A stretch of 64,000 nt of DNA from Escherichia phage vB_EcoM_G37-3. The notes below the pieces were generated by a model. The model did no database searches. It was not told the DNA's origin and saw only the letters and a program-made list of their open reading frames with translations. Position 1 is the first letter of the stretch, and each line of letters starts with the position of its first letter. Location of the stretch: sequence record MK327941.1; one strand, given 5' to 3'. Below are positions 5,780-64,000 of the stretch, piece after piece. The translations under genes and the position numbers were made by a program.

Positions 5780-6990
5780 TTAAGCAGGATGCGTTTCACG
5801 AATGCGTAGAACTCGCTCTAACGTCGCTCGGTCCAGCTTATGTAACTCTTTGGAATGATACATGAAACCATTGCGAGATTCCATGCAAGTGCAATCACTA
5901 TATTTTTCTTCCGCTGCCGCGATCGTCTCCAGATCTTTGGCGTACTTGCTGGTTGAATAAACTTCTCGATCACGCCACTCTAACCCAGCCTCATTGAATT
6001 TAACAATCTCGTCAAATACCCACCATCCAATGTAGATAAATGAAGTTTTGCGCCACGGGATCGGGTGTACGTAACGAAACATTTTAACAACTTCCATTGA
6101 ACATTTTCGGCTTGTACTTGCTGCAACTTCTACTGTTTCATCTTCGATCTGTTGATATAGTTTAGCAACACACCAGAATTTGGCTGTGTCATCGTAAGTA
6201 GCACTCTCTTTGAACAGATGACCGTCTGGCATGATAGAAAATCCTTCCAGTGCTTCGCCGACCTCACTACCGATTAGAGTCGGTGACGGTTGCCCTTCGC
6301 GCTGCAAATACCAGTTATATTTGATCGTCAATTAGGCATACCGCTAGAATCGCCTACAATGTCCTCTGACACAACATAATTAAGTGATATCTCATTACCT
6401 AGTGCCACGGTCTTTGATTCCACCACATCCTGATCTACGTTCATTGTTGCCAGCATGATTTTAGTCGATGCGCTAGCGGCTGAATCTTCCGACTCGCCCC
6501 ACTTTTACAGTATACACGCCGTTTTTATCTGCTGTAAATTCTTGGATCGTAATATCCTTTTTTGTGTCTATAACGTCATCGCCCTTACTCCAACTATAAT
6601 GTAGTTCATAGTTGTCTGCTGGAGTCTTCCCACCAGAAAAATTGACTGTTGCATGTAATTCTACGTCTGTTTGTGATGATACGTAGAATGCTGCGGTTCG
6701 GTGATATTTACGATTAATGCAGCTTCTTCCATGAGGAAAACTTCAGATTCTACTGATGTCATCGTATCGGTATCTTGTACCGTTACTTTATAGCTACCCG
6801 CATTTTCACTTGTTGCGTCTGCTACAGTTAGCGTAGCTGTGCTATTTTCATGCGGTTGGTCGTCTTTTGTCCATGTATATGTCAAATTGCTGGGTAATGG
6901 TTCGTCACCCGCTACAGTCGCCGTTAAGGTGAAACCATCTCCAGCAAGAAAACATCTTTTGTTAGATTGTATTGATACTGTGAAAGCCAT
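5780..6990 (-). pseudogene. hoc: hoc (highly immunogenic outer capsid protein), disrupted by frameshifts
   Basis: N-terminal Ig-like domain (MAFTVSIQ..., TYTWTKDDQ, GSYKVTV) and C-terminal capsid-binding domain (YVHPIPWRKTSFIYIGWWVFDEI...ESRNGFMYH) both match T4 Hoc but lie in different frames; at least three frame changes near 6661-6742, about 6490 and about 6335. Confidence 0.75.
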
Positions 6991-7085
6991 ATAAAGCCAC
7001 TCCCATCGAAAATCCGAATTTAATTAATTGAAATAGTTGATTGTCATCAACCAGATAACCATTGCGAGATTCCAATACATGAGTA

Positions 7086-7250
7086 TTAGAATAGTGATGC
7101 AACGAGGCCGAAATAGTATCGATCTCGTCTGGGTATTTGTTCTGCTATAAAGTCTGCTGTACTAACAACAATCTTTAACAGAAGTGGATGACCAACGGAG
7201 CCATAAACCGGATCTTCTGTTTGATGTAATACATTGATTTTGTTAGACAT
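7086..7250 (-). CDS. Small hypothetical protein (54 aa)
   Basis: ATG at 7250 preceded by GGGAGA RBS. Confidence 0.4.
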   Translation of the reverse strand: MSNKINVLHQTEDPVYGSVGHPLLLKIVVSTADFIAEQIPRRDRYYFGLVASLF

Positions 7251-51611: not shown

Positions 51612-52193
51612 TCATCCTCTTTTTGGAAAATTTAAATAAGCATACTCGCCAACTATTTCATGTGCTGCACGGTCATAAGCCTTAGCCGCCTCAACTTCTG
51701 TCTCAAAGTATCCTAGATGTATATTCTTTCGATTGATAACAATATACGCCTTCCACGGCTTTTTCTTGCTTGGTGATAATGATACACCTTTATATTTGCT
51801 ATGGCAAGCCTTTTTCTTTGAGACGTTAAACTGATTTTGCTGTTCGGTTGCTTCTCTCATGTTTGACGGTCTATTGTTAGTTTTGTCTTGGTCTATGTGA
51901 TCTATTCGTTCAACCTGAGTACCATACTCTAAAAACCAGACAACTCTATGTACAAACAGATTAAGTTTATGACCATTGTTGTAAAATGTAAAGTATAAAT
52001 ATCCTTCTTTATGGAGACATACCCTTACCACATCACCTTTTTTGTATATGGACCCTTCTTTTCGGAATCCAGCAGCTACAGAATCCTTTAAATGGTATAA
52101 TATTCCATCGACATGATAGAATCTACCTTTTATCGCTTTCTGTGTCTCGATATCCCAAAATTTTGTTTTTGCCACAACAAACACCTCACACAA
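51612..52193 (-). CDS. HNH-AP2 homing endonuclease
   Basis: HRVVWFLEYG...IDHIDQDKTNNR (HNH) and YKGVS...GYFETEVEAAKAYD (AP2); between rnh and gene 34. Confidence 0.6.
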   Translation of the reverse strand: MCEVFVVAKTKFWDIETQKAIKGRFYHVDGILYHLKDSVAAGFRKEGSIYKKGDVVRVCLHKEGYLYFTFYNNGHKLNLFVHRVVWFLEYGTQVERIDHIDQDKTNNRPSNMREATEQQNQFNVSKKKACHSKYKGVSLSPSKKKPWKAYIVINRKNIHLGYFETEVEAAKAYDRAAHEIVGEYAYLNFPKRG

Positions 52194-52227
52194 TAAATAA
52201 TTTCATATTATAACAGGAGACCCAATA

Positions 52228-55200
52228 ATGGCAGATTTTTCTCAACATTTCAAGGCCACCTTTGGCTTTGACGCTGGTAATGAAAAGGTCGTCAATGTAG
52301 CATACGCAGATAAAAACACATCAACGGATGCGGTCAACGTTGAATTTTTCAATTACCATAATGGTATTACTCAGTATGACACAACTCGCGGTTATGATCA
52401 ATACGGAACTACAATCTATCAAAACCGTCCGTATTATGCAAAAGAAGATATCACAAAGCCAGCGGGTGATTTTGACCCGACGAAATGGCAAGCACTGCGC
52501 AACGATCCACGTTGGGATTATATTGCAGCAACTTCCGGTGATACTCCTTTAAAGTCTGGTGATTATATCGCAGCAGATGGTCAATTTGCAAACTTGACTT
52601 TCTCTATGCCAAACAAACCAGCAGAGGGAGACACTATAACAGTAAAAGATATCGGTGGCAAGTGTGGTGTTAACGAATTATCGTTCTTGAGTTCAGGGCA
52701 TGAGTTTTACCATAACGGTAATGTGTATAACCGAAAATGGTATTGCACTACCCCGTATGCAATGAACTATTTCATCTTTGTTCGTAATCGTTGGCATGTT
52801 TATCAGACAGGAACAGAGCCACGCGGTGTGTACGCACAGCCAGCGATTGATGCTATTCAAATGCAGAATGGTGATCAGGTATTTCGTCGTAGTTCGTTGG
52901 GTAATATTACCTTAGTGCTTCCTAAGTTTGCCAACAATGGCGACATGATCCAGACTACAGATCTTGACGGGTTAACCGCAACCAACCACGTTACGGTTAA
53001 AGTTCATGAGCACGCAGAAGAACAATCAATTGGCACGTCCGGTCTAAAAGAGATTATCGGTAAGCGTAGCGGTCATGGTGTATTCATATTTGACAAACCG
53101 GAAAACTTATGGCGTTTGTGGGATGGTGATCAGTCTGTTCGCTTGAATCCTATCATTAGTGATACTCGCTTATCCCCTAATAGCTATGTTGCAGTATTTG
53201 GTGATCGTGATGTTGCCTTGACTTTACCGACCAATGTCGAGCCGGGTGATCGCATTCAAGTTTCTATGCAGTATATGCACGGAAACCAGACTTGCCGAAT
53301 CATTACCTCAGAAGAGGATACAAAAATCCTTATGCAGAAAAACATGGTTCAGTTTCCTAAGCGTAGCGAGTACCCATTCAATGGGACCGATACATGGACG
53401 GGAGTATCTGAATTGTCTTTCAACGCTGCAAATGATTATGTACCTTATCTGGAGTTCTCTTATTCAGAAGGTGATGATGGTAAGAAATACTGGTTGGTGG
53501 CACATGCTCACCCGATTGTAGAACGAGTAGATCCGACTCGTAAAGATCGTGTTGGTGTAATTGCACTGGCTACCCAGGATGAAACAAACAAAAACCATGA
53601 AGATAATCCTAGCGACGAAGTTGCGGTGACTCCAAAGGTTCTGGCTAACAAAACAGCCAACGAAACTCGACGCGGTATTGCTCGCATTGCGACTCAAGCG
53701 GAAACGCATCAAGATACTGGTTCCAGCTTCCTGGATGATGTTATCGTTACGCCTAAAAAGTTAAATGATTGTGTTGCTACCGAAGCCCGTCGTGGTGTAA
53801 TGGAAATTGCAACTCAACATGAAACCAACGAAGGTTTAGACGATACTCGCGCAATAACTCCTAAGAAGTTAGAAGAACGTCGCGCTTCCGAAGATCTCGC
53901 TGGTATTGCTGAAATTGTTCAGGTTGGCGGTAGTGCTGCCACTCGACGTGGCGAAGCTGGTACAGGGATCTATAACATCAACGACCATGCTAAAATTGTT
54001 ACGCCACAAAACATCAACGAAGTCAAGGCGACCGAAACTTCCCGTGGTGTTGGCTATCTGGCAACTGACGCGGAAGTGCAAGGGGCTACAGAATCAACCC
54101 CGCAAGATGCTTTACTAATCACGACTCGCACGCTAACGAAGCGTACTGCTACAGAATCGCGTACTGGTATCGCTGAAATTGCAACTCAGGAAGAAACAAA
54201 CTTAGGTCAAAGTGATAACCATATCATCACGCCTAAAAAGCTGCATACTCGCCGCGCAACGGAAACTTTACACGGTTTAGCAGAAATTGCAACTCAGTCG
54301 GAATTTGACGCAGGTCGTGACGATGCTCGCATTTCTACCCCATTGAAGATTAAAACCTTCTTTGAGAATGCACAGCGTTTGAAAGTAGATCCGACTCAGG
54401 GGCTTAACCTTACGGGTGACTTGTGGCAAGGTATCACGATCAGCGGTCTTGATGCAACCGAAGACACAAAAGGTGTCGCTAAAGTTGCTACTACTCAGCT
54501 TACGGATGTTGGTCAAGATGATACTACAATCATCACGCCTAAAAAGCTGCAAGGCAAAAAAGCCACCGAAGGTAAAGAAGGTATTATCCGCGTTGGTACT
54601 CAAGCCGAAACCGTGGCTGGTACACTGGCTAATGTAGCAATTTCTCCGAAGAACTTCAAATATGTTGTTCAGACAGAGGATACATGGAAAGCAACCGAAG
54701 CTCGTCGTGGATTCTTGAAAGTTGCTACTCAGGAAAACTGTTTTGTTGGTGATAATCTGCAAGGTTCTACTCAAGAACTAGGAAACTACCAGCATGACGG
54801 AATTGCTGTTACCCCTAAAGGATTAAACTACGCACTTGCTAATTTCTTACCTAAGATGGCAACTGCCCAGAATAGTTTGAAATTGGGTAACGTAGATGCC
54901 GCTAAATGGGCGCGTAGAGACATTGACCAGACCATTGAGAGCAATTACACGTTTAATAAAAACGTTAACGTGAAGGGCGATTTAGAGTGCTTAAAATCAG
55001 GTTCCTTTGAAACTCTGTTTGTGACTAAGAACTCGACTGATGATCCGAGTAATGGTCATCTGGTGTTGGGTGAGCGTGGAGTTGACGGTCACACCGGAAT
55101 TACTCTGCATGGCACAACCGCATCGGAAGGCATGGAAAACTCATGGTCTATTATCGTTGGTGGCACTGGAACATCTCAAGTTGTTGATAGTAATGCTATC

Positions 55201-55968
55201 GCTTTCGGTAAAATCAATGATGGTGGAGTCGTCGAGCATTACGCCTTTGCTATGGAACACAATGGCGACGCGACAGCATATAGAGACTTTATTGCAGGTC
55301 GTAACCTGTATGCGAAACAAGGCGGTTTATACATTGTTGACCAGTCTAATCCGGCAATGACTCGTTCCCCAGATGGTATGCTGAATATCGGTCACGGTGG
55401 AAGTGTTAACATCAAGGCAGGTCATCAAACGTTAACTACAGAGATCGCCGGACAGAAATATCAGATCGTCCACGCAGGAAACGCAGACGAAGTTCTTAAC
55501 CGTCAGTTTGTTAAGAATGCTGGCGATACAATGGTCGGTAAGCTGACTATGGATAATGCGCCTATTGTTTCTGTTAAGCATGAAGCTAGCGCGGCAACCG
55601 CTCCGGCAATCAGCAACATCGGTTTCTGGAATATGCGCGTTACTACCCAGAACATCAAAGAAACTTATCCAGAGAAGAAAAACGGTACTCTGATGCAATG
55701 GGGTACTGACGCGGACGGGCTTACCCAGCTTTGGTCCCCCGATGGTACTCATAAACATTATATCCGTTCCGGTACTGGTGGTCAATGGACCGCATGGGGT
55801 GAAATTTACACCAAACAGAATAAGCCTACCGCTCAGGAAATCGGGGCAGTAGTTGCAGAAGGTGGTTTAATGAACTCTATGACGGTTCGTGACTGGATCA
55901 AAGTTGGTAATGTTAAAATCATCGCCAATAATCTGACTCGTACCGTAGACTTTATCTGGGAAGACTAA
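52228..55968 (+). CDS. 34: Long tail fiber proximal subunit gp34
   Basis: 1246 aa; N-terminus matches T4 gp34 (DAG..K..NVA.AD...TD.VNV, QYD.TRGY); synteny. Confidence 0.85.
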   Translation: MADFSQHFKATFGFDAGNEKVVNVAYADKNTSTDAVNVEFFNYHNGITQYDTTRGYDQYGTTIYQNRPYYAKEDITKPAGDFDPTKWQALRNDPRWDYIAATSGDTPLKSGDYIAADGQFANLTFSMPNKPAEGDTITVKDIGGKCGVNELSFLSSGHEFYHNGNVYNRKWYCTTPYAMNYFIFVRNRWHVYQTGTEPRGVYAQPAIDAIQMQNGDQVFRRSSLGNITLVLPKFANNGDMIQTTDLDGLTATNHVTVKVHEHAEEQSIGTSGLKEIIGKRSGHGVFIFDKPENLWRLWDGDQSVRLNPIISDTRLSPNSYVAVFGDRDVALTLPTNVEPGDRIQVSMQYMHGNQTCRIITSEEDTKILMQKNMVQFPKRSEYPFNGTDTWTGVSELSFNAANDYVPYLEFSYSEGDDGKKYWLVAHAHPIVERVDPTRKDRVGVIALATQDETNKNHEDNPSDEVAVTPKVLANKTANETRRGIARIATQAETHQDTGSSFLDDVIVTPKKLNDCVATEARRGVMEIATQHETNEGLDDTRAITPKKLEERRASEDLAGIAEIVQVGGSAATRRGEAGTGIYNINDHAKIVTPQNINEVKATETSRGVGYLATDAEVQGATESTPQDALLITTRTLTKRTATESRTGIAEIATQEETNLGQSDNHIITPKKLHTRRATETLHGLAEIATQSEFDAGRDDARISTPLKIKTFFENAQRLKVDPTQGLNLTGDLWQGITISGLDATEDTKGVAKVATTQLTDVGQDDTTIITPKKLQGKKATEGKEGIIRVGTQAETVAGTLANVAISPKNFKYVVQTEDTWKATEARRGFLKVATQENCFVGDNLQGSTQELGNYQHDGIAVTPKGLNYALANFLPKMATAQNSLKLGNVDAAKWARRDIDQTIESNYTFNKNVNVKGDLECLKSGSFETLFVTKNSTDDPSNGHLVLGERGVDGHTGITLHGTTASEGMENSWSIIVGGTGTSQVVDSNAIAFGKINDGGVVEHYAFAMEHNGDATAYRDFIAGRNLYAKQGGLYIVDQSNPAMTRSPDGMLNIGHGGSVNIKAGHQTLTTEIAGQKYQIVHAGNADEVLNRQFVKNAGDTMVGKLTMDNAPIVSVKHEASAATAPAISNIGFWNMRVTTQNIKETYPEKKNGTLMQWGTDADGLTQLWSPDGTHKHYIRSGTGGQWTAWGEIYTKQNKPTAQEIGAVVAEGGLMNSMTVRDWIKVGNVKIIANNLTRTVDFIWED

Positions 55969-56002
55969 TTAAAGGGGGCGAAAGCCCCCCTATGGGGTTA
56001 TT

Positions 56003-57142
56003 ATGACACAAGAGATAGAATTACGCAACACTGGAATTAGGTTTGCGCATTTCGACGAAGACTCTGCGACATTTACCAGCATTTCAGAAAATAACTCTGT
56101 GATGTATAAGCTGGAAGTGCGCGGATCTAATGCGGATTCTACCAAACCAGCAAGAATTAGATTTAATGGAGTGGAGATCGTCGGGACTGGCTATGAGACT
56201 GGCCTAAACTTTAAAGTTTTTACTCCAACTGGACAATTGCACGAAGAAAAGGTATTCTATGGTCGTGGTGCTGTATTGGCAATGCGTGATTATCTTTATT
56301 TGCTAAAAGGCGACTATATCATTGCGATGGCAACGCATGGAGAATTGTTTGCAGATCCGATAAGTGATGATATATTTTCTAAGCTGGGATCTGTATCATT
56401 CCCGAATCACATTTTGTTACAGCAAATGCCTCGTGTATCCTATGCAGCAATTTATTCTACTAAAATGGGTAAAATTGTGTGCGAAGGGATGCAAGCAACG
56501 CACGGAGAAGGTCAAGATTCGTCTATACAAATTGAGAAAGTTTATGATACTATAGACGATCTTGCAATAACAGGAACACCACAACGATTTTTAGATTATC
56601 CGGTTGAGTATGTTAGCGAAGATGCCGAACATTTCGAGATAATACAATGGCCTCATGATGAGATCAGCGCACCACTTGAACATTTTAACATAAAGGCAGG
56701 TGACAAACTATCAATATCCTTTGAATTGTTCCGTGATAGTGCCGCAGCCGCAGCCAACGTAACAGCGCGTTTCTATCACAACTACTTCACTGATGGACAA
56801 TATCAAACTGGCGTTCGTTATAATGCCAGCCAGAAAGATCAATGGGAAAAGTTTGAAACCGTCTATACCGTACCGGAAGGAGTTGATAGTGTTGCCACTG
56901 GTTGTATCAGATATCCAACCAACTCAAATGAAGGTATTGTTAAAATTAGAAACATACTAATAACGCCGATCAGTGGAGTCGTCAAAACTACTGGTCCTAC
57001 TTCCTTTGGTGTTAACGGTATTAGAACAACTCACATTCAGGATAACGGTAATTTCGATAACCCTGTTATGAGTCTTCTTAAACTACCTAGAGACAATAAA
57101 CATATCACATCCAACAACTTTAAAGAGTTCGATGTTGATTAA
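56003..57142 (+). CDS. 35: Long tail fiber hinge connector gp35
   Basis: 379 aa; synteny and size. Confidence 0.7.
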   Translation: MTQEIELRNTGIRFAHFDEDSATFTSISENNSVMYKLEVRGSNADSTKPARIRFNGVEIVGTGYETGLNFKVFTPTGQLHEEKVFYGRGAVLAMRDYLYLLKGDYIIAMATHGELFADPISDDIFSKLGSVSFPNHILLQQMPRVSYAAIYSTKMGKIVCEGMQATHGEGQDSSIQIEKVYDTIDDLAITGTPQRFLDYPVEYVSEDAEHFEIIQWPHDEISAPLEHFNIKAGDKLSISFELFRDSAAAAANVTARFYHNYFTDGQYQTGVRYNASQKDQWEKFETVYTVPEGVDSVATGCIRYPTNSNEGIVKIRNILITPISGVVKTTGPTSFGVNGIRTTHIQDNGNFDNPVMSLLKLPRDNKHITSNNFKEFDVD

Positions 57143-57154
57143 CATTTTTAACAA

Positions 57155-57184
57155 GCCGATCCTCGTGGTCGGCTTTATTTTTAT
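57155..57184 (+). terminator. Rho-independent terminator after gene 35
   Basis: GCCGATCCTCGTGGTCGGC hairpin followed by T-run. Confidence 0.6.
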
Positions 57185-57203
57185 ACAGTTGGTTAAAACA
57201 TAA

Positions 57204-57292
57204 CCAAAACGAAGAAAGATCTTTAGAATAATAGAAAATTTGTTTCGGTTAAAAAATAGTCAGTGCCTACGGCACGTCGCGAAGCGATATTT
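57204..57292 (+). repeat. Third copy of the conserved intergenic element seen at 4325-4540
   Basis: CCAAAACGAAGAAAGATCTTTAGAATAATAGAAAATTTGTTTCGG and CGCGAAGCGATAT blocks shared with the 4.3-4.5 kb region. Confidence 0.6.
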
Positions 57293-57303
57293 TGTTAACA
57301 TTC

Positions 57304-57311
57304 TATAAATA
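57304..57311 (+). promoter_or_regulatory. Late promoter TATAAATA for gene 36
   Basis: Exact TATAAATA about 33 nt upstream of ATG 57345. Confidence 0.6.
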
Positions 57312-57344
57312 CTCGGAACTATAACTAATTTTTGAGGTTACTTT

Positions 57345-58835
57345 ATGGCAGATTTGAAACATGGATCTACTGTAGGCGGATCTCCCATTTGGACGCAAGG
57401 AAACTTGACGATCCAGCCAGCGGGGGATCAGCTTTTCTACAAAGGTCATAAAATCTATACCGCTTTTGATAAACCTTCGGCTGCCGATTTTGATGCTGTT
57501 AGTGCATCCGAAGGTGGCACATTTCAAAAGCAAGTTCATTTCGAGGAAGGTTTAAGCGTAGGTAGCGCATCGGCTGGAGAAACCAAAAAGAACGGGATCT
57601 TTAAAGGAAATAGTGATGCGGCTAACTTTGATGGTGTAAGTTGGGGTTTGCATTCGTGGAAATCTATTGGTTTTGTTAATGCTCGTGATGATGTTATCAT
57701 GGCTTATATTGACACTACCACAGGTGATTTTAAAACTAAAGGGACTATCGAAGGGACAACCATTAAAGACACAGGTCAACGCGTCTATAGCCCTGTTAAT
57801 AAACCAACGAATAATGATTTAGATTTGGTGTCTCGTCGCGGTGATACCCTCACAGGAACATATAATTTAAACACTGTCACTGTTAAACTATCGGTTGATT
57901 CGAAATTAATTGCAAGGGAACGTGATTTAATTAATTTTGATGCGACTAAGATCTATTATGGTAACGTTCTTGATACGTTGGTCTTCCGAAGTAAAGATGA
58001 GCCTACCATTTTTGTTAATGGCAGAGAAGGTCGTTTTTATCACACCAACAATAAACCAACTAAAGCCGATGTTGGGCTAGGCAATGTCACCAATGATGCA
58101 CAGGTTAAACGTGCTGGTGATATTATGGAAGGTAACTTGCAAGCACCTAGAATGTTGGCGACAAACGATCCTGCTGGTCCTAATGAATTGGTTCGTTTGA
58201 GCTACTTTGAGAGAAAATCAATGGTAGCAAATCCAACCATCATTGGAAACGTTGATTGGAACACTCTTATTAATCGCGGTATCTATCGTGTGGAAAATGC
58301 TGGGTCAGGTACTAATAAACCGTCTGATAGCTATTATAACGGCGTTTTGATGGTATATCGCCCAGAAGATGCGGTCGGTACTCGTCGAATTGTTCAGGTG
58401 TATTATCCTGAATCTATTGACCATCCGATGTGCTGGCGTTCTTGTTCTAATGAATCATGGACTGCATGGAACTATGTAGATCACCGTAAATTGGCTGATA
58501 TTCGCTATGTTAACGTCACTGGCGATACCATGACAGGACCGTTAACTGTTCCGGCTGCAAACGGTGTTAGAACGGCTAGAGGTGCATATAATGGTGATAA
58601 CTACTATGCCGGGTTAAATAGTGCTGACGGCACGGCTATGATTCACCGTATCAGCGATATTAAAGCCACTGAAAAATTGGGTATTACACATGATTCGAAA
58701 GCTGTTTTCGTTAAATCGCGTGGAAATACTCAAGCCACAGACCGCTATGAACTTTACCACGAAGGGCATAAACCTACCCCTGCCGAAGTTGGTGCGGTTC
58801 CACTTAATGCGGTGATTGATTTCGGTACTTTCTAA
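57345..58835 (+). CDS. 36: Long tail fiber distal connector gp36
   Basis: N-terminus MADLKHGSTVGGSPIW.QGN matches T4 gp36; 496 aa, longer than T4 (221 aa). Confidence 0.75.
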   Translation: MADLKHGSTVGGSPIWTQGNLTIQPAGDQLFYKGHKIYTAFDKPSAADFDAVSASEGGTFQKQVHFEEGLSVGSASAGETKKNGIFKGNSDAANFDGVSWGLHSWKSIGFVNARDDVIMAYIDTTTGDFKTKGTIEGTTIKDTGQRVYSPVNKPTNNDLDLVSRRGDTLTGTYNLNTVTVKLSVDSKLIARERDLINFDATKIYYGNVLDTLVFRSKDEPTIFVNGREGRFYHTNNKPTKADVGLGNVTNDAQVKRAGDIMEGNLQAPRMLATNDPAGPNELVRLSYFERKSMVANPTIIGNVDWNTLINRGIYRVENAGSGTNKPSDSYYNGVLMVYRPEDAVGTRRIVQVYYPESIDHPMCWRSCSNESWTAWNYVDHRKLADIRYVNVTGDTMTGPLTVPAANGVRTARGAYNGDNYYAGLNSADGTAMIHRISDIKATEKLGITHDSKAVFVKSRGNTQATDRYELYHEGHKPTPAEVGAVPLNAVIDFGTF

Positions 58836-58839
58836 TTTT

Positions 58840-58866
58840 AGCGGGGATTCTCTCCCCGCTTTTCTA
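58840..58866 (+). terminator. Rho-independent terminator after gene 36
   Basis: AGCGGGGATTCTCTCCCCGCT followed by TTTCT. Confidence 0.5.
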
Positions 58867-58905
58867 AATAATATTATTCTAATAACCGTTTAAGGATTTT
58901 ATAAA

Positions 58906-61770
58906 ATGGCAGATTTAAACAGAATCCAATTTAAACGCACTAGCACTAAAGGTCGTAAACCTGATGCTAGTACGATGTATCCGGGGGAATTGGCAATCAA
59001 CCTTGCGGATCAATACATGTTTACTAAAAATGATTCGGGGACTCTCATCAATTTAAGTTGTCCTCCGGTGTATAACCGTGACGTTATAATGGCGGGTAAG
59101 GTTAAAGGGAATGATTATATTTTAAGCAAAACCGCTAATTATTTTGAAGACCAAACCGCGCGAGATCTTAATTATTTTGGTGCGTTTCGACCGAATAATG
59201 CTGATGGTTGGTCTAACTTGATTCTGAACATTCCTCATCCCAGCGGTAAAGCACACGGTCGCGGTTTTGAGTTCCAATATGGGTCCAGCTCACCTCAAGT
59301 TAAAACCTATGGCTTTGATAAAGATGGTAATAAGCGATTCAGCTTTCGCATGTATCACGAAGGTGATAAGCCTAGTCCGTCAGAATTAAATGTGTACAGC
59401 AAACAAGAAGTAGATCGGATGTTCCAAAAGACACTTGATTTTGGAACTGAGTCTGGTTGGTTTAAAATTGCTACTGTATATCTTCCGCAACACTTCGGTC
59501 GTAGTGCTAAAATTAGATTGGTTGGTGGTAATGGCTATAATGTAGGAAAGACAGATCGATGTAATATTATTGAATTAGTGTTGCGGAATGGCAACAATGC
59601 CCCTAAAGGAATTAATATTGTTGCTTATCATCACATTTCTGGGGGTGAAAACCAATTTTGTGCTATTAATACAAGCGACGATAATTATGATATATATGCT
59701 TATTATTTCGGACATACATCATTTGTTCTTGCTGAATATCAAGCGTCTACCGGTGTTAATTTAACTGTACTTGATCGACCTGAATATGTCGGCGAAAAAC
59801 CTGTAGCTGATCATATCTATGATGCATATACAATATACTCCTTTAACAGTTTCAGTAACCGTGGAACGTTAAATTTTGCTGGAAACCCTCAAGGCCAATA
59901 TGACATTGAGCATATGAACGAACAACCGACAAATGCTAAAAAGATGTTGCGTCGGTTTAGAAGCTCTGCTCTTTCCACTATCTGGCATGAAACCGTTGAT
60001 GACCAGAATTATCGTCTTGCCACTGGCTTTACAGATTCAGGTCAACAATTATTGCTGACAACAACCGGGTTACATGTCAAGAGATTAACATTGGATGGCG
60101 GTGCTGCGGGTGGAAATGCTGGTATTGATATTCGTCGAGGACCAAACGAAGCAAGCCATTTTAATTTTATGGATTATCGCACTGGTCAAGATGTTCGTAA
60201 TGGCTGGTTTGGTTTTGGTGATTTGACGACCAAAGATTTTATTTGGTGGAACGATAACGGTCAAAACTCGATAAACTTGGTCGAAAACGGTGAATTACAG
60301 ATTTCTGGCGGTAAAGGCCAGAAAATTGTAATGAATAGCGAAGTTGCATTATCTGAAAATGCTCGTTTGGCTGTTAGAGGTGGTAATTATGGCGTGATAT
60401 TCCGTAATGATGGAACGAGCTTTCATCTGCTTACTACCGATTTAAAAGATTCTTTTGGTAGTTGGAATAATCGCAGACCGTTCAGTTATGATTTCGCCGA
60501 AGGTGGATTAGATCTAGGTGGCACAACGACCGCTCGTTGTTTACATCTGGGAATTGATGGTAGTACCCGCATCGAGGATAACTTAGTTTTCCGGGCTGGA
60601 TCTCGTCAATCAATGGACTATATTGAAATGATCCATTGGGGTAACAGTAATATCGCTCGTGACAACGTTTTGAGTATGAAAGACTCGAAAGGATTCCTTG
60701 CTGAATTTGAACGCGTGGGTGGGACTAACGGCGTTAAAACCAGATTATTTGGCGAAACCTTCACTGACGGTACATTATACCTAAATCAGATGAATAATAG
60801 CTCTGAACGATTCTCTATCAACAATTGGGGAAATTCAGAAGTTGGACGCGCGGCAGTAATGGAGATCGGTGATTCCAAAGGTTATCACTTCTATACTGAA
60901 CGTAGAACAGATAACACCGTTTTATTTGATGTAGCTGGTGCTTTGACCGTGCATGGACCTAACGGAATAACCATCAAAAACTCAACTGGTGCACGCCATA
61001 TCTGGTTTAGAGATGACAGCGAATCGGAAAAGGCTGTTATCTGGGCTACAGATGAGGGTATTTTACATATTCGCAATAACCACGGTGGACAATTTAGTCA
61101 TCACTTCCAGGGTGCAATGATTAAAGCGGGAGAGCGTGTTCCATATAATAGTGAATACGCTCTTATCCGTGGTGATATTTCCGGTGGTGCATGGGTAGAC
61201 TGGCGAGCGCGTCCGGCTGGATTGTTGGTAGACTGTCAGGACTCACGAAATCAAGCATATAACATTTGGAAAGCTACTCATTGGGGCGAACAGCACCTTG
61301 CGGCGATGGGTGTTCATGCTGGCGGTGGTAATCCTCATGTTGTATTGCATGTGGGTGGGAATGATTATGCATTTGCATCTAACGGTGATTTTACTGCTGG
61401 TGCTGCTGTATATTGTAACGACGTTTATATTCGTTCTGACCGTCGTCTGAAAATTAATGTTGAAGACTACGAAGAGAATGCGGTAGATAAGGTAAATAAA
61501 CTCAAAGTTAAAACCTATGATAAAGTTAAATCTCTTTCTGACCGCGAAGTTATCGGCCATGAGATTGGTATTATCGCACAGGATTTGCAAGAAGTATTAC
61601 CGGAAGCTGTTAGCACTTCTAGTGTCGGATCTCAGGATAACCCAGAAGAAATTTTAACAATTTCAAACTCCGCAGTGAACGCGCTGTTAATTAAAGCGAT
61701 CCAAGAAATGAGCGAAGAAAATAAAATCCTTCGTGAACGTCTTGCTGCAATTGAGGCTAAATTAGGGTAA
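58906..61770 (+). CDS. 37: Long tail fiber distal subunit gp37 with C-terminal intramolecular chaperone-like domain
   Basis: N-terminus RIQFKRTSTKGRKPDAS..GELAINL matches T4 gp37; C-terminus IRSDRRLKINVED...GIIAQDLQEV resembles the S74 autoproteolytic chaperone domain. Confidence 0.8.
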   Translation: MADLNRIQFKRTSTKGRKPDASTMYPGELAINLADQYMFTKNDSGTLINLSCPPVYNRDVIMAGKVKGNDYILSKTANYFEDQTARDLNYFGAFRPNNADGWSNLILNIPHPSGKAHGRGFEFQYGSSSPQVKTYGFDKDGNKRFSFRMYHEGDKPSPSELNVYSKQEVDRMFQKTLDFGTESGWFKIATVYLPQHFGRSAKIRLVGGNGYNVGKTDRCNIIELVLRNGNNAPKGINIVAYHHISGGENQFCAINTSDDNYDIYAYYFGHTSFVLAEYQASTGVNLTVLDRPEYVGEKPVADHIYDAYTIYSFNSFSNRGTLNFAGNPQGQYDIEHMNEQPTNAKKMLRRFRSSALSTIWHETVDDQNYRLATGFTDSGQQLLLTTTGLHVKRLTLDGGAAGGNAGIDIRRGPNEASHFNFMDYRTGQDVRNGWFGFGDLTTKDFIWWNDNGQNSINLVENGELQISGGKGQKIVMNSEVALSENARLAVRGGNYGVIFRNDGTSFHLLTTDLKDSFGSWNNRRPFSYDFAEGGLDLGGTTTARCLHLGIDGSTRIEDNLVFRAGSRQSMDYIEMIHWGNSNIARDNVLSMKDSKGFLAEFERVGGTNGVKTRLFGETFTDGTLYLNQMNNSSERFSINNWGNSEVGRAAVMEIGDSKGYHFYTERRTDNTVLFDVAGALTVHGPNGITIKNSTGARHIWFRDDSESEKAVIWATDEGILHIRNNHGGQFSHHFQGAMIKAGERVPYNSEYALIRGDISGGAWVDWRARPAGLLVDCQDSRNQAYNIWKATHWGEQHLAAMGVHAGGGNPHVVLHVGGNDYAFASNGDFTAGAAVYCNDVYIRSDRRLKINVEDYEENAVDKVNKLKVKTYDKVKSLSDREVIGHEIGIIAQDLQEVLPEAVSTSSVGSQDNPEEILTISNSAVNALLIKAIQEMSEENKILRERLAAIEAKLG

Positions 61771-61809
61771 TTGGAAAGCGGGGAGAAAATCCCCGCTAAG
61801 GATTCTTAT

Positions 61810-62106
61810 ATGGGATATTGGGTCAGTAGTGAAATTAATACTAAAATCGATGCTTTAAAATGGCATGTATTTGATATTCCTAACGGCTATGGTACTGCTC
61901 GCGCTGGCGTTGCTGTCATGCGTCATAATGCTGGTGGTGGATGGTCTGATGCACATATTAACGTAGATGGTTTGACCGTTGCTCGTCGTCGTGGTGGGTC
62001 CAATTGGGGATCTACTATAAATTCGTTTGTTCCTGCTGGCTGTACCGTCTCCTTTGGTTTAGGGGGTGAAGGTGGTGTTGAATATTTTAAATTCATGGAG
62101 TTTTAA
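61810..62106 (+). CDS. Glycine-rich small protein, tandem paralog A (FDIPNG family)
   Basis: ATG 61810 with AAGGA RBS; FDIPNGYG, NAGGGW, TVSFGLGGEGG. Confidence 0.55.
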   Translation: MGYWVSSEINTKIDALKWHVFDIPNGYGTARAGVAVMRHNAGGGWSDAHINVDGLTVARRRGGSNWGSTINSFVPAGCTVSFGLGGEGGVEYFKFMEF

Positions 62107-62108
62107 TT

Positions 62109-62414
62109 ATGGCTGGATGGATAAATCAAAGAATGTCAAACGCTATTAGTATTTGGGCTAATGGTGGATATTTTGATATCCCTAACGGTTGGGTCACTGA
62201 TTCATGCGGAATTGTTTTTGCTCATATGGAAGCCATTAACGGTGCTGGTGATCTTGGTTCTGAATTGGCTGTAAATGGATTGATTGAATCAGGTCATCAC
62301 GCTGGTAATGCCGGAAGTTGGGGCGCTAGTTCTTTAGTTGGCGCTGGTGCTACCGTTAGCTTTACATTGGGTAAAGGTAGTTTGCATTATTTCAAATTCA
62401 GGAGAATGCACTAA
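62109..62414 (+). CDS. Glycine-rich small protein, tandem paralog B
   Basis: GGAG RBS; FDIPNGW, ESGHHAGNAGSWG, TVSFTLG. Confidence 0.55.
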   Translation: MAGWINQRMSNAISIWANGGYFDIPNGWVTDSCGIVFAHMEAINGAGDLGSELAVNGLIESGHHAGNAGSWGASSLVGAGATVSFTLGKGSLHYFKFRRMH

Positions 62415-62716
62415 TGGCATTTTGGGTAGATGGCGCTTTGGGGAATAGGGCGGGTAAAGCAAATCAAGGATGGTTTGATATTCCTAACGGTTGGACAGCC
62501 GACGCTTTCGGGACTATTTCATTTTCCGCTCATTCTTCCGGTGGTGGCGGCGGTGACTCTGAATTGTTTATTCATGGTTTTTGTGTTTCTGGAAGCCATA
62601 AGGGTCATGATTGGGGACAGATCCATTCTTGTATTGCACCGCAAGGGGCGGTAATTACCGTTAGCACAAATAGGGGGGTCGCTCATCTTCGTTATAGACG
62701 TTTGAGCAACCGCTAA
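62414..62716 (+). CDS. Glycine-rich small protein, tandem paralog C
   Basis: AGGAGA RBS; FDIPNGW, SSGGGGGD, SGSHKGHDWG. Confidence 0.55.
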   Translation: MAFWVDGALGNRAGKANQGWFDIPNGWTADAFGTISFSAHSSGGGGGDSELFIHGFCVSGSHKGHDWGQIHSCIAPQGAVITVSTNRGVAHLRYRRLSNR

Positions 62717-62771
62717 ATAAATAGAATTACGGAAAACTCCCAGGGAAGGGAACTACTAAGGAGAAACGGCT

Positions 62772-63011
62772 ATGGTCTATAATATCGTCATTGGTGCTTT
62801 GTCTAATTTCGGAATGAAACTATTGTCAAAGTTAATTAGTGAAAAGATGCTCACTAAAATTTTCTTCTATTGCGCTCGTCGTCTTGCGGCTTATACCAAT
62901 ACGCCAATTGATGATCGTTTTGTGGAAGAGCTTTATAAGGAGTTTAATAAAGATCAGTCAGAAGATAGCAACGAGCAAAATAAAAATAGTGATAGTCAAG
63001 TACCTAAATAA
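62772..63011 (+). CDS. Small hypothetical protein with hydrophobic N-terminus
   Basis: AAGGAGA RBS; 79 aa. Confidence 0.5.
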   Translation: MVYNIVIGALSNFGMKLLSKLISEKMLTKIFFYCARRLAAYTNTPIDDRFVEELYKEFNKDQSEDSNEQNKNSDSQVPK

Positions 63012-63044
63012 GAATACACTGTCATAGTTATCTTAGGGCATTAT

Positions 63045-63701
63045 ATGCAAGTTTCTGAAAAAGGGAAAGACTTTGCTATCTCAAATGTCCTGCGCGCTAT
63101 TTTCACAACTAAAAGCACGGAGTTGCTCGTACTTCGTGTTTTTGCTGCCGTCGTGTTGTCTATATTAGCATTTGTCGTTTATAGTAAAAACGAGTTATTT
63201 GCCTTGTATAAAGAGACTCGTTATGAGACTTATGCTCACGTTCTCCAGGTAGAGAAAGACCGCAATTTTGATAATGCAGCACAGGAGCAGTTACAGATAG
63301 TTCATGTGTCGGCTAATGCCGATTTTTCTGCTGTTTTTAGTTTTCGTCCGAAAAACCTAAACTATTTTGTTGATTTGGTGGCATATGAAGGAAAGTTACC
63401 TCATACAATCGACGAAAAGAATTTAGGCGGATTCCCTATCAATAAAACGAGTGAAGAATATCGTAGGCATCTTTTAGGTAAATCCTATTTTACCGATAAA
63501 GATTTCCAGTATATTCCATCAAGAGAAAAGAAATTAGAGAGTATCGATATAGGGTTTATGTATTCTTGCCCTATATTCAATCTCGATAATGTCTATTCTG
63601 GTAGTATCGCCATTGCATGGAAGAATAAACCGGATATTGACATTGAGAATTTAGATACTCTTTGCAATCAATCTGCCAGAATCCTCGGAAGGATTAGATA
63701 A
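63045..63701 (+). CDS. t: Holin
   Basis: 218 aa; strong match to T4 holin T (LEQLQIVH.S..ADFSAV.SFRPKNLNYFVD..AYEGKLP, YSCP.FNLDN.Y.G, ARILGR). Confidence 0.9.
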   Translation: MQVSEKGKDFAISNVLRAIFTTKSTELLVLRVFAAVVLSILAFVVYSKNELFALYKETRYETYAHVLQVEKDRNFDNAAQEQLQIVHVSANADFSAVFSFRPKNLNYFVDLVAYEGKLPHTIDEKNLGGFPINKTSEEYRRHLLGKSYFTDKDFQYIPSREKKLESIDIGFMYSCPIFNLDNVYSGSIAIAWKNKPDIDIENLDTLCNQSARILGRIR

Positions 63702-63706
63702 CTTAA

Positions 63707-63739
63707 AGGGGAAGCCTTTCGGCCTCCCCTTCTTTTTTA
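63707..63739 (+). terminator. Rho-independent terminator after holin gene
   Basis: AGGGGAAGCC-tttc-GGCCTCCCCT followed by T-run. Confidence 0.65.
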
Positions 63740-63985
63740 TTGGCGCATAGAAGCCCCTGAATCACATTTTGACGCTGTATGATGAAAACATGTAGCGTAC
63801 CAGTCATCGGCTTGTTTGTCTTCGTCAGAAAACGCATAATTTCGTTGTATGCCGTTTTCTACTTTGACCAGTGCAATAGCTGTTTCTGGAAGATCAATCA
63901 ATCGGACAAAATCACCATCTTCCCACTCTACACGAGCAATATCATAGCCCATCTCAAAGTATACAATCGCTTGTTCTAATTTCAT
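63737..63985 (-). CDS. Hypothetical protein
   Basis: 82 aa, convergent with holin gene. Confidence 0.45.
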   Translation of the reverse strand: MKLEQAIVYFEMGYDIARVEWEDGDFVRLIDLPETAIALVKVENGIQRNYAFSDEDKQADDWYATCFHHTASKCDSGASMRQ

Positions 63986-64000
63986 TCTGGAAACTTCCCG

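Follow-up and report, generated by a model that had tools for sequence, protein, structure and literature searches.

Immediately behind the long-tail-fiber gene gp37 of Escherichia phage vB_EcoM_G37-3 (record MK327941.1) lie three small open reading frames (ORFs), which we call A, B, and C or, together, the trio. We analyzed them within a 64,000-nucleotide (nt) stretch of this record, hereafter the window. We give roughly even chances to the reading that the trio proteins assemble 1:1:1 as a heterotrimer, a C1q-like knob docked on the processed fiber tip that does the job of the adhesin gp38. That this knob is an obligate heterotrimer that binds the receptor and is clipped noncovalently to the self-processed trimeric fiber end is, in our estimate, a little short of even. 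What we infer is the heterotrimer, how it docks, that it is part of the virion, and that it binds the receptor; the predicted fold, the strict triplet, positional orthology, linkage to fibers ending in a Peptidase_S74 (S74) domain, and exclusion of gp38 were computed.

The trio sits in the slot that gp38 fills in the sister phage kvi, between gp37 and the Dc5/holin genes. Among the records of our phage collection, all three genes were found only in G2248 and UPWr_E1, with a remnant in KFS-EC. G2248 carries an intact trio, and tblastn found no gp38 anywhere in its 170.7-kb genome; UPWr_E1 also has the trio, and its remote gp38 site is empty. KFS-EC has gp38 at the remote site, and its trio is reduced to a deleted A(1-88)::C hybrid with a frameshift. 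In that locus (L001 5802-6231) the rest of C lies in another frame and the deletion junction falls in Gly-codon repeats, while the gp38 (L032 13142-13918, minus strand, 259 amino acids (aa)) is encoded in the early region, 55 kb from gp37, under the GenBank label hypothetical.

A second replacement was seen in two E. coli siphovirus-type prophages (L034 and L035), where a kvi-type cassette with 93.8% nt identity displaced A, B, and the first half of C. The cassette (L034 4505-6213) begins with the S74-domain end and gp38 and continues through intergenic DNA into Dc5, of which it has the first 9 codons; these are fused in frame to the C-terminal half of C, giving a 70-aa chimera that begins MVYNIVIGA-NSSGGGGGDSELL. 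This cassette is direct evidence for gene traffic from a lytic T4-type phage to a prophage. Together with KFS-EC, these cases mean that trio and gp38 have been swapped at least twice, in two phage backgrounds. In the loci compared, the two are mutually exclusive: wherever gp38 occurs, the trio is broken.

The position of gp38 itself varies within the genus. In RB49 and about 44 other records, gp38 is an early-region gene some 55 kb distant from gp37 (e.g., AY343333 44725-46625), and no tip gene separates gp37 from Dc5; this remote gp38 of RB49-group phages was also remarked on previously (bioRxiv 10.64898/2026.04.02.716166). The remote site is empty in kvi, FL15, FL20, MIZ4/5, Skers, and phiS, and the records of kvi, Skers, phiS, and MIZ4/5 annotate a gp38-type gene directly after gp37. 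With the near site, the remote site, and the trio phages, the genus therefore has three tip-gene arrangements.

The window's own trio lies in a block of homology (59128-62732, plus strand) with the fiber and trio DNA of E. coli siphovirus-type prophages (up to 91.7% nt identity, to L013). The block runs from about aa 75 of gp37 to 16 nt beyond the C stop codon, and homology to RB49 returns at 62717. It is a horizontally exchanged cassette, and as a single block it indicates that the trio travels together with the fiber end.

The fiber in question, the distal subunit gp37 (58906-61770, plus strand, 954 aa), ends as the original prediction proposed, in an autoproteolytic chaperone-type domain; the coordinates given there for the region are also correct. 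Pfam Peptidase_S74 (PF13884) matched aa 844-902 with 55.1 bits against a cut-off of 22, and the conserved S-D-x-x-x-K motif is present as S844-D-R-R-L-K849, 111 aa from the C-terminal end, in a region where IRSDRRLKINVED occupies aa 842-854. Over aa 610-940, gp37 shares 95% nt identity with the RB32/T6 type of gp37, which is partnered by a T6-type gp38. The motif places the predicted cut between R843 and S844, and self-cleavage, which we expect from this identity, would leave a mature part (58906-61434, plus strand, aa 1-843) and free an intramolecular chaperone of 111 residues (S844-G954; 61435-61770 with the stop codon, plus strand). Residues 610-843 make up a T6/RB32-type tip, which in phages of that type is the docking scaffold for gp38. 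Fibers of this tip kind have been described as lacking a receptor-binding domain of their own (bioRxiv 10.64898/2026.05.12.724579). The residues preceding the cut, ...N-D-V-Y-I-R, are conserved across all trio fibers compared and also in gp38-bearing fibers, and they are a candidate docking platform.

Such an ending is nonetheless common among T-even relatives. RB49 and most of these phages have a self-cleaving chaperone, followed by one gp38 adhesin bound to the processed tip (PMC9569957; bioRxiv 10.64898/2026.05.12.724579). The S74 ending is ordinary for T2/T6/RB49-type fibers; it is T4 that departs from the rule. For T2 gp37, C-terminal processing was reportedly demonstrated by Drexler and colleagues in 1986. 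Among S74 fibers and spikes (endosialidases, T5 pb1, T2-type gp37), the C-terminus of the window's gp37 is a clear member, and the novelty lies only in its partner.

The partner genes, all on the plus strand, encode proteins of 98 aa (A, 61810-62106), 101 aa (B, 62109-62414), and 100 aa (C, 62414-62716). As the original prediction had it, all three share FDIPNG[WY], and two bear His-rich segments, GHHAGN in B and GSHKGHDWG in C, the latter in a loop of a protein that also has a GGGGGD loop. Several glycines are likewise common to A, B, and C. Each begins with M-[AG]-x-W-[VI], in which Trp4 is invariant, and an alignment of 30 family members contains invariant residues common to all. Comparison of paralog with paralog by tblastn gave E values of 2e-8 to 8e-12, well beyond chance, indicating that the three are true paralogs. 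The ratio of nonsynonymous to synonymous substitution (dN/dS) against orthologs was 0.04-0.24 for the trio genes, showing that they are real and under purifying selection.

That no described family matches these proteins also held up. Pfam, PHROGs, and NCBIfam gave no meaningful family match for A, B, or C, RefSeq/PGAP labels them hypothetical proteins, and neither full-text literature searches aimed at such proteins or such an arrangement nor several papers on Krischvirus and gp38 yielded a description of the three proteins. The trio proteins do not match Pfam Gp38_N or GP38, whereas genuine gp38 does, and hhalign of the trio against a gp38 alignment returned a probability of 0.4%. Based on this null profile comparison and the different fold described below, we ruled out that the trio is a truncated or diverged gp38; the two are not homologous. 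A weak profile match to the collagen IV NC1 domain (E 0.008, through a PNGW-like motif) was regarded as chance, since single domains give E = 41 and Pfam lends no support.

AlphaFold2 models of A and B, built from the 30-sequence alignment, reached predicted local distance difference test (pLDDT) values of 81.7 and 86.7, respectively, and consist of an N-terminal helix (residues ~2-13; aa 3-12 in A and 2-13 in B) followed by an eight-strand beta-sandwich. Foldseek searches of the PDB with these models returned almost exclusively chains of the C1q and TNF families (best E 8e-4, template modeling (TM) scores 0.4-0.56), and the best fold matches among predicted viral structures include C1q-domain, collagen-repeat, and tail-fiber proteins. 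We therefore describe the predicted fold as C1q/TNF-like, with no claim of common descent, as the similarity scores are modest; neither Pfam C1q (PF00386) nor TNF (PF00229) matched any of the 30 members even at E <= 1. The predicted fold is that of fiber-end knobs.

The models also bear on the glycine-rich stretches, which are predicted to be loops of the beta-sandwich and not a gp38-type polyglycine domain; A and B are modeled as ordinary eight-strand sandwiches with no polyglycine-II sandwich. If direction reverses between consecutive strands, one end of the sandwich would carry the helix and the C-terminus along with two turns, b3-b4 and b5-b6. At the opposite end would be the IPNG turn and three loops, of which b2-b3 and b6-b7 are Gly-rich and b4-b5 is His-rich; the GHHAGN loop of B is predicted to lie at this distal end. 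The predicted distal loops include residues 36-50 and 63-64 in A and 37-50 and 66-67 in B. Most allelic variation falls on the end bearing the IPNG turn and the Gly- and His-rich loops.

We next consider how the family is distributed. It is very small: 5.8 billion proteins yielded 37 clusters, and a set of 1.84 billion yielded 19 representatives. Four of these 19 are long repeat proteins that we discounted: P0052 and P0056 are unrelated repeat proteins matched via many weak stretches, and P0048 and P0054, long and repetitive, were set aside for the same weak-stretch pattern, judged by pattern only. A scan of species-representative genomes detected no relatives. Outside the lytic phages, E. coli, Shigella, and Salmonella harbor the trio in siphovirus-type prophages, with the gene order terminase, portal, protease-capsid, fiber (Gp34_trimer + S74), A, B, C, tail tube, tape measure, J. 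A survey of 5,426 complete E. coli genomes turned up the trio in 24, the best match being 98.9% identical to the window. In the E. coli L3Cip3 prophage (L036 2747-3975), an IS3-family element splits the fiber gene immediately ahead of a trio that shares 98.9% identity with that of the window. The trio was also found behind fibers in metagenome contigs, one of these fibers combining a T7-type N-terminus with an S74 C-terminus.

A hidden Markov model (HMM) scan of the fetched loci identified 27 with family members, of which 24 were covered by the contig and undisrupted. All 24 have exactly three members, in A-B-C order, directly behind the fiber ORF; the remaining three loci have a deletion (KFS-EC), a frameshifted B (L018), or a contig end (L022). 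An S74-like motif lies 95-115 aa from the end of the fiber ORF in 26 of the 27 loci (L031 gave no motif match), across three fiber/phage contexts: Krischvirus myophages, siphovirus-type prophages, and metagenome contigs with T7-type fibers.

Comparison of six divergent loci gave a mean identity of 49% between proteins at the same position and 28% between different positions, and 79 of 90 comparisons had their best cross-phage match at the same position. It follows that each of the types is old and non-redundant, and their occurrence in the same order in very distant phages points to one three-part assembly. The types also differ in their ends. The C-terminus of A is acidic (...F-x-F-M-E-F; ...FKFMEF in the window) and those of B and C are basic, and N-terminal extensions are confined to B types. 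In addition, A carries Arg and Glu where B and C carry Asp and Arg: R31, in the loop after FDIPNGY, and E97, near the C-terminus, correspond to Asp and Arg-Arg in B and C. These two sites may form a contact pair, as both are predicted at the same end of the sandwich.

Taken as a mechanism, the favored reading would proceed as follows. gp37 would trimerize and then cut off its C-terminal S74 chaperone, as in T2, T6, S16, and RB49, where the new tip is then bound by a single gp38 that recognizes the receptor; here the trio would take the place of gp38. Each member would contribute a short N-terminal helix with Trp4 and a minimal C1q/TNF-like jelly roll, and A, B, and C would assemble 1:1:1 into a heterotrimeric knob. 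The three N-terminal helices and the charged C-termini would dock on the platform at the fiber end, at the new C-terminus ...N-D-V-Y-I-R, and the opposite face, with its most variable Gly- and His-rich loops, would contact the cell surface. Since one trio accompanies several tip types, any docking site must be a conserved element. The attachment domain of gp38 consists of three short helices on a hydrophobic gp37 platform (PMC9608196), and the three helices of the trio would most likely mimic it.

Several observations weigh against this mechanism. The same trio, with A identical, goes with T6-type, T2-type, and two other mature tip types, and within the prophages identical A proteins pair with three or four of them; trio variability is also much below that of the hypervariable gp38 loops. 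One A serving several tips and such low variability are compatible with a conserved assembly factor as well. The broken trio of KFS-EC does not prevent that phage from being viable, though gp38 is present there. tblastn detected no gp38 within the window, the usual remote Krischvirus site, flanked by the G2248_00078 and G2248_00079 homologs, lying outside it, and the window phage may carry a remote gp38, since the window stops 1.3 kb past C. The searchable papers contained no virion proteomics or genetics for any trio member.

These points bear most directly on the alternative that the trio serves the assembly or maturation of S74-ending fibers, is absent from the finished virion, and leaves receptor binding to the fiber tip itself. 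In such a role A, B, and C could aid folding, control self-cleavage, or help release the chaperone. An A protein that is 100% identical across fibers with different mature tips makes the tip look like the diversifying part, the low variability and dN/dS of the trio suit such a role, and the ~90 additional residues of the G2248 tip (type iv) could themselves be a binding domain. T4 gp38, encoded at the same genome position, is likewise an assembly factor and not an adhesin. However, these fibers already carry their own chaperone, and the tip types concerned (T2, T6) are docking scaffolds for gp38. What the trio is swapped with is moreover an adhesin-type gp38 (Pfam Gp38_N + GP38) and not a T4-type or Tfa-type chaperone. 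The trio has no match to known chaperone families in Pfam, PHROGs, or NCBIfam, and its predicted fold is that of fiber-end knobs. On balance we consider an assembly role unlikely.

Somewhat less probable still is a set of alternative tip adhesins, in which A, B, or C would cap a fiber by itself, either monomeric like gp38 or homotrimeric, so that one virion would bear fibers of up to three specificities. Both forms have precedents, in that gp38 is monomeric on a trimeric fiber (PMC9569957) and C1q/TNF domains can form homotrimers, and it is in the predicted distal loops that the paralogs diverge most. For alternative adhesins one would expect lineage-specific gain, loss, and duplication, whereas the copy number is always three in the covered undisrupted loci, with a fixed order and old positional orthologs. 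The contrast between an acidic end in A and basic ends in B and C, together with the B-only N-terminal extension, suggests distinct structural roles, and translational coupling of the genes (below) fits production in equal amounts. The original prediction had suggested alternative receptor-binding tip modules, lectin-like adhesins, or assembly factors; its tip-adhesin part gains support from the gp38 slot, the exclusion, and the knob fold, and its alternative part runs counter to the fixed ordered triplet.

The trio could also be cargo with no relation to the fiber, serving superinfection exclusion, defense, or lysis, given that it adjoins Dc5 and the holin in the window and has no annotated function. 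Yet the prophage trio lies between fiber and tail-tube genes, far from the lysis genes, an S74 fiber precedes it in all three contexts, and trio decay coincides exactly with the presence of gp38. With no signal peptide-like or membrane segment visible in the trio sequences and no family match, we regard this explanation as highly improbable.

A heterotrimeric knob in place of gp38 also fits a known kind of system, the separately encoded tip partner of a chaperone-processed fiber. Like the T2/T6/S16-type gp38 (PDB 6F45; Pfam Gp38_N PF21721 + GP38 PF05268), the trio is encoded separately, directly after an S74-ending gp37, uses the same two fiber-tip types and the same genome slot, contains Gly-rich segments, and starts with a helix that would serve for attachment. 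Unlike the trio, gp38 is a single 260-aa monomer that combines a beta-helix with a polyglycine-II sandwich, whereas the trio comprises three 100-aa proteins predicted to be jelly-roll sandwiches, with no sequence or profile similarity to gp38 and with far less variation than its hypervariable segments.

We also compared the trio with the gC1q A/B/C heterotrimer, with other C1q/TNF trimers including BclA, and with viral C1q-domain fiber ends. The trio domain is smaller (~85 aa and 8 strands versus ~130 aa and 10 strands in C1q/TNF), is not covalently joined to the fiber shaft, and has no Pfam C1q/TNF match. As with T4 gp38, Mu/P2 Tfa, and Pam3 gp25, the trio proteins are small and encoded right downstream of the fiber gene, and Pam3 gp25 works as a trimer around the fiber end (PMC9608196). 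In those systems, however, the fibers have no intramolecular chaperone and the partner is one protein, in contrast to three distinct paralogs that match no family. We found no earlier description of the trio family, its three-paralog organization, or its fold. We know of no described phage fiber tip built from three different paralogs.

The surrounding region is a long-tail-fiber operon, that of an RB49-like (Krischvirus) phage of the T4 type. The closest genomes in a collection of 50,697 phage records are Krischviruses, with ~85% identity over this stretch. Upstream of gp37 lie gp34 (52228-55968), gp35 (56003-57142), and gp36 (57345-58835), and downstream of C lie a Dc5-like ORF (62772-63011) and the holin gene t (63045-63701). 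The sequence TATAAATA ahead of gp36 (57304-57311, plus strand) is the sole match to a T4-type late-promoter motif within 52000-64000; gp36, gp37, A, B, and C are therefore probably transcribed as a single late transcript. A and B are separated by 2 nt, the B stop and C start overlap by 1 nt (TAATG), and each of the three genes has its own Shine-Dalgarno sequence; A, B, and C are translationally coupled. For A there are two possible starts, a TTG at 61771 and an ATG at 61810. The ATG, giving the 98-aa protein, is most likely used, as it has a Shine-Dalgarno sequence, agrees with the annotated start in G2248, and yields the common M-[AG]-x-W-[VI] N-terminus.

Right behind the gp37 stop codon lies a GC-rich hairpin (61777-61797, plus strand) with an 8-bp stem and no T-run. 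The 56-nt segment that includes it (61760-61815) folds at -17.6 kcal/mol (z = -2.3), and the G2248 record annotates a terminator at the equivalent position. The hairpin was not called an intrinsic terminator by a terminator scan because the T-run is absent. It may reduce expression of A-C relative to gp37 and so set the ratio of gp37 to trio.

Homopolymeric G runs occur near the 3′ ends of two trio genes, a G5 at 62062-62066 in A and a G6 at 62673-62678 in C. A metagenomic variant (P0018; 5 member sequences, 2 contigs) is the same as A until the G5 run and then shifts frame by -1, and one prophage copy (L018) has a 1-nt insertion in B. These frameshifts could be sequencing errors, decay, or slippage-based switching. 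Elsewhere in the window (~5786-7250, minus strand) are ORFs related to G2248_00171 and G2248_00172, which by eye appear to contain tandem immunoglobulin-like repeats. The G2248 versions are far longer (410 and 847 aa) and may explain part of the larger G2248 genome.

Host range in T-even-like phages is now read and engineered via gp37 and gp38. Receptor predictors based on sequence would miss the adhesin of G2248 and UPWr_E1, as these phages have no gp38, and UPWr_E1 features in papers on poultry phage cocktails and avian pathogenic E. coli (APEC). A recent survey expects "undetected external adhesin partners" for chaperone-bearing fibers (bioRxiv 10.64898/2026.05.12.724579), and the trio is a concrete, testable candidate for such a partner. 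The trio-gp38 swaps show direct cassette traffic between lytic and temperate phages. If the stricter reading, an obligate heterotrimeric receptor-binding knob, is true, the trio would be a second, unrelated solution for gp38's job, exchangeable among lytic myophages, temperate siphophages, and T7-like podophages. It would place an asymmetric tip on a symmetric fiber, convergent with the A/B/C head of complement C1q, and the three different distal faces of such a heterotrimer could serve as a new scaffold for fiber retargeting.

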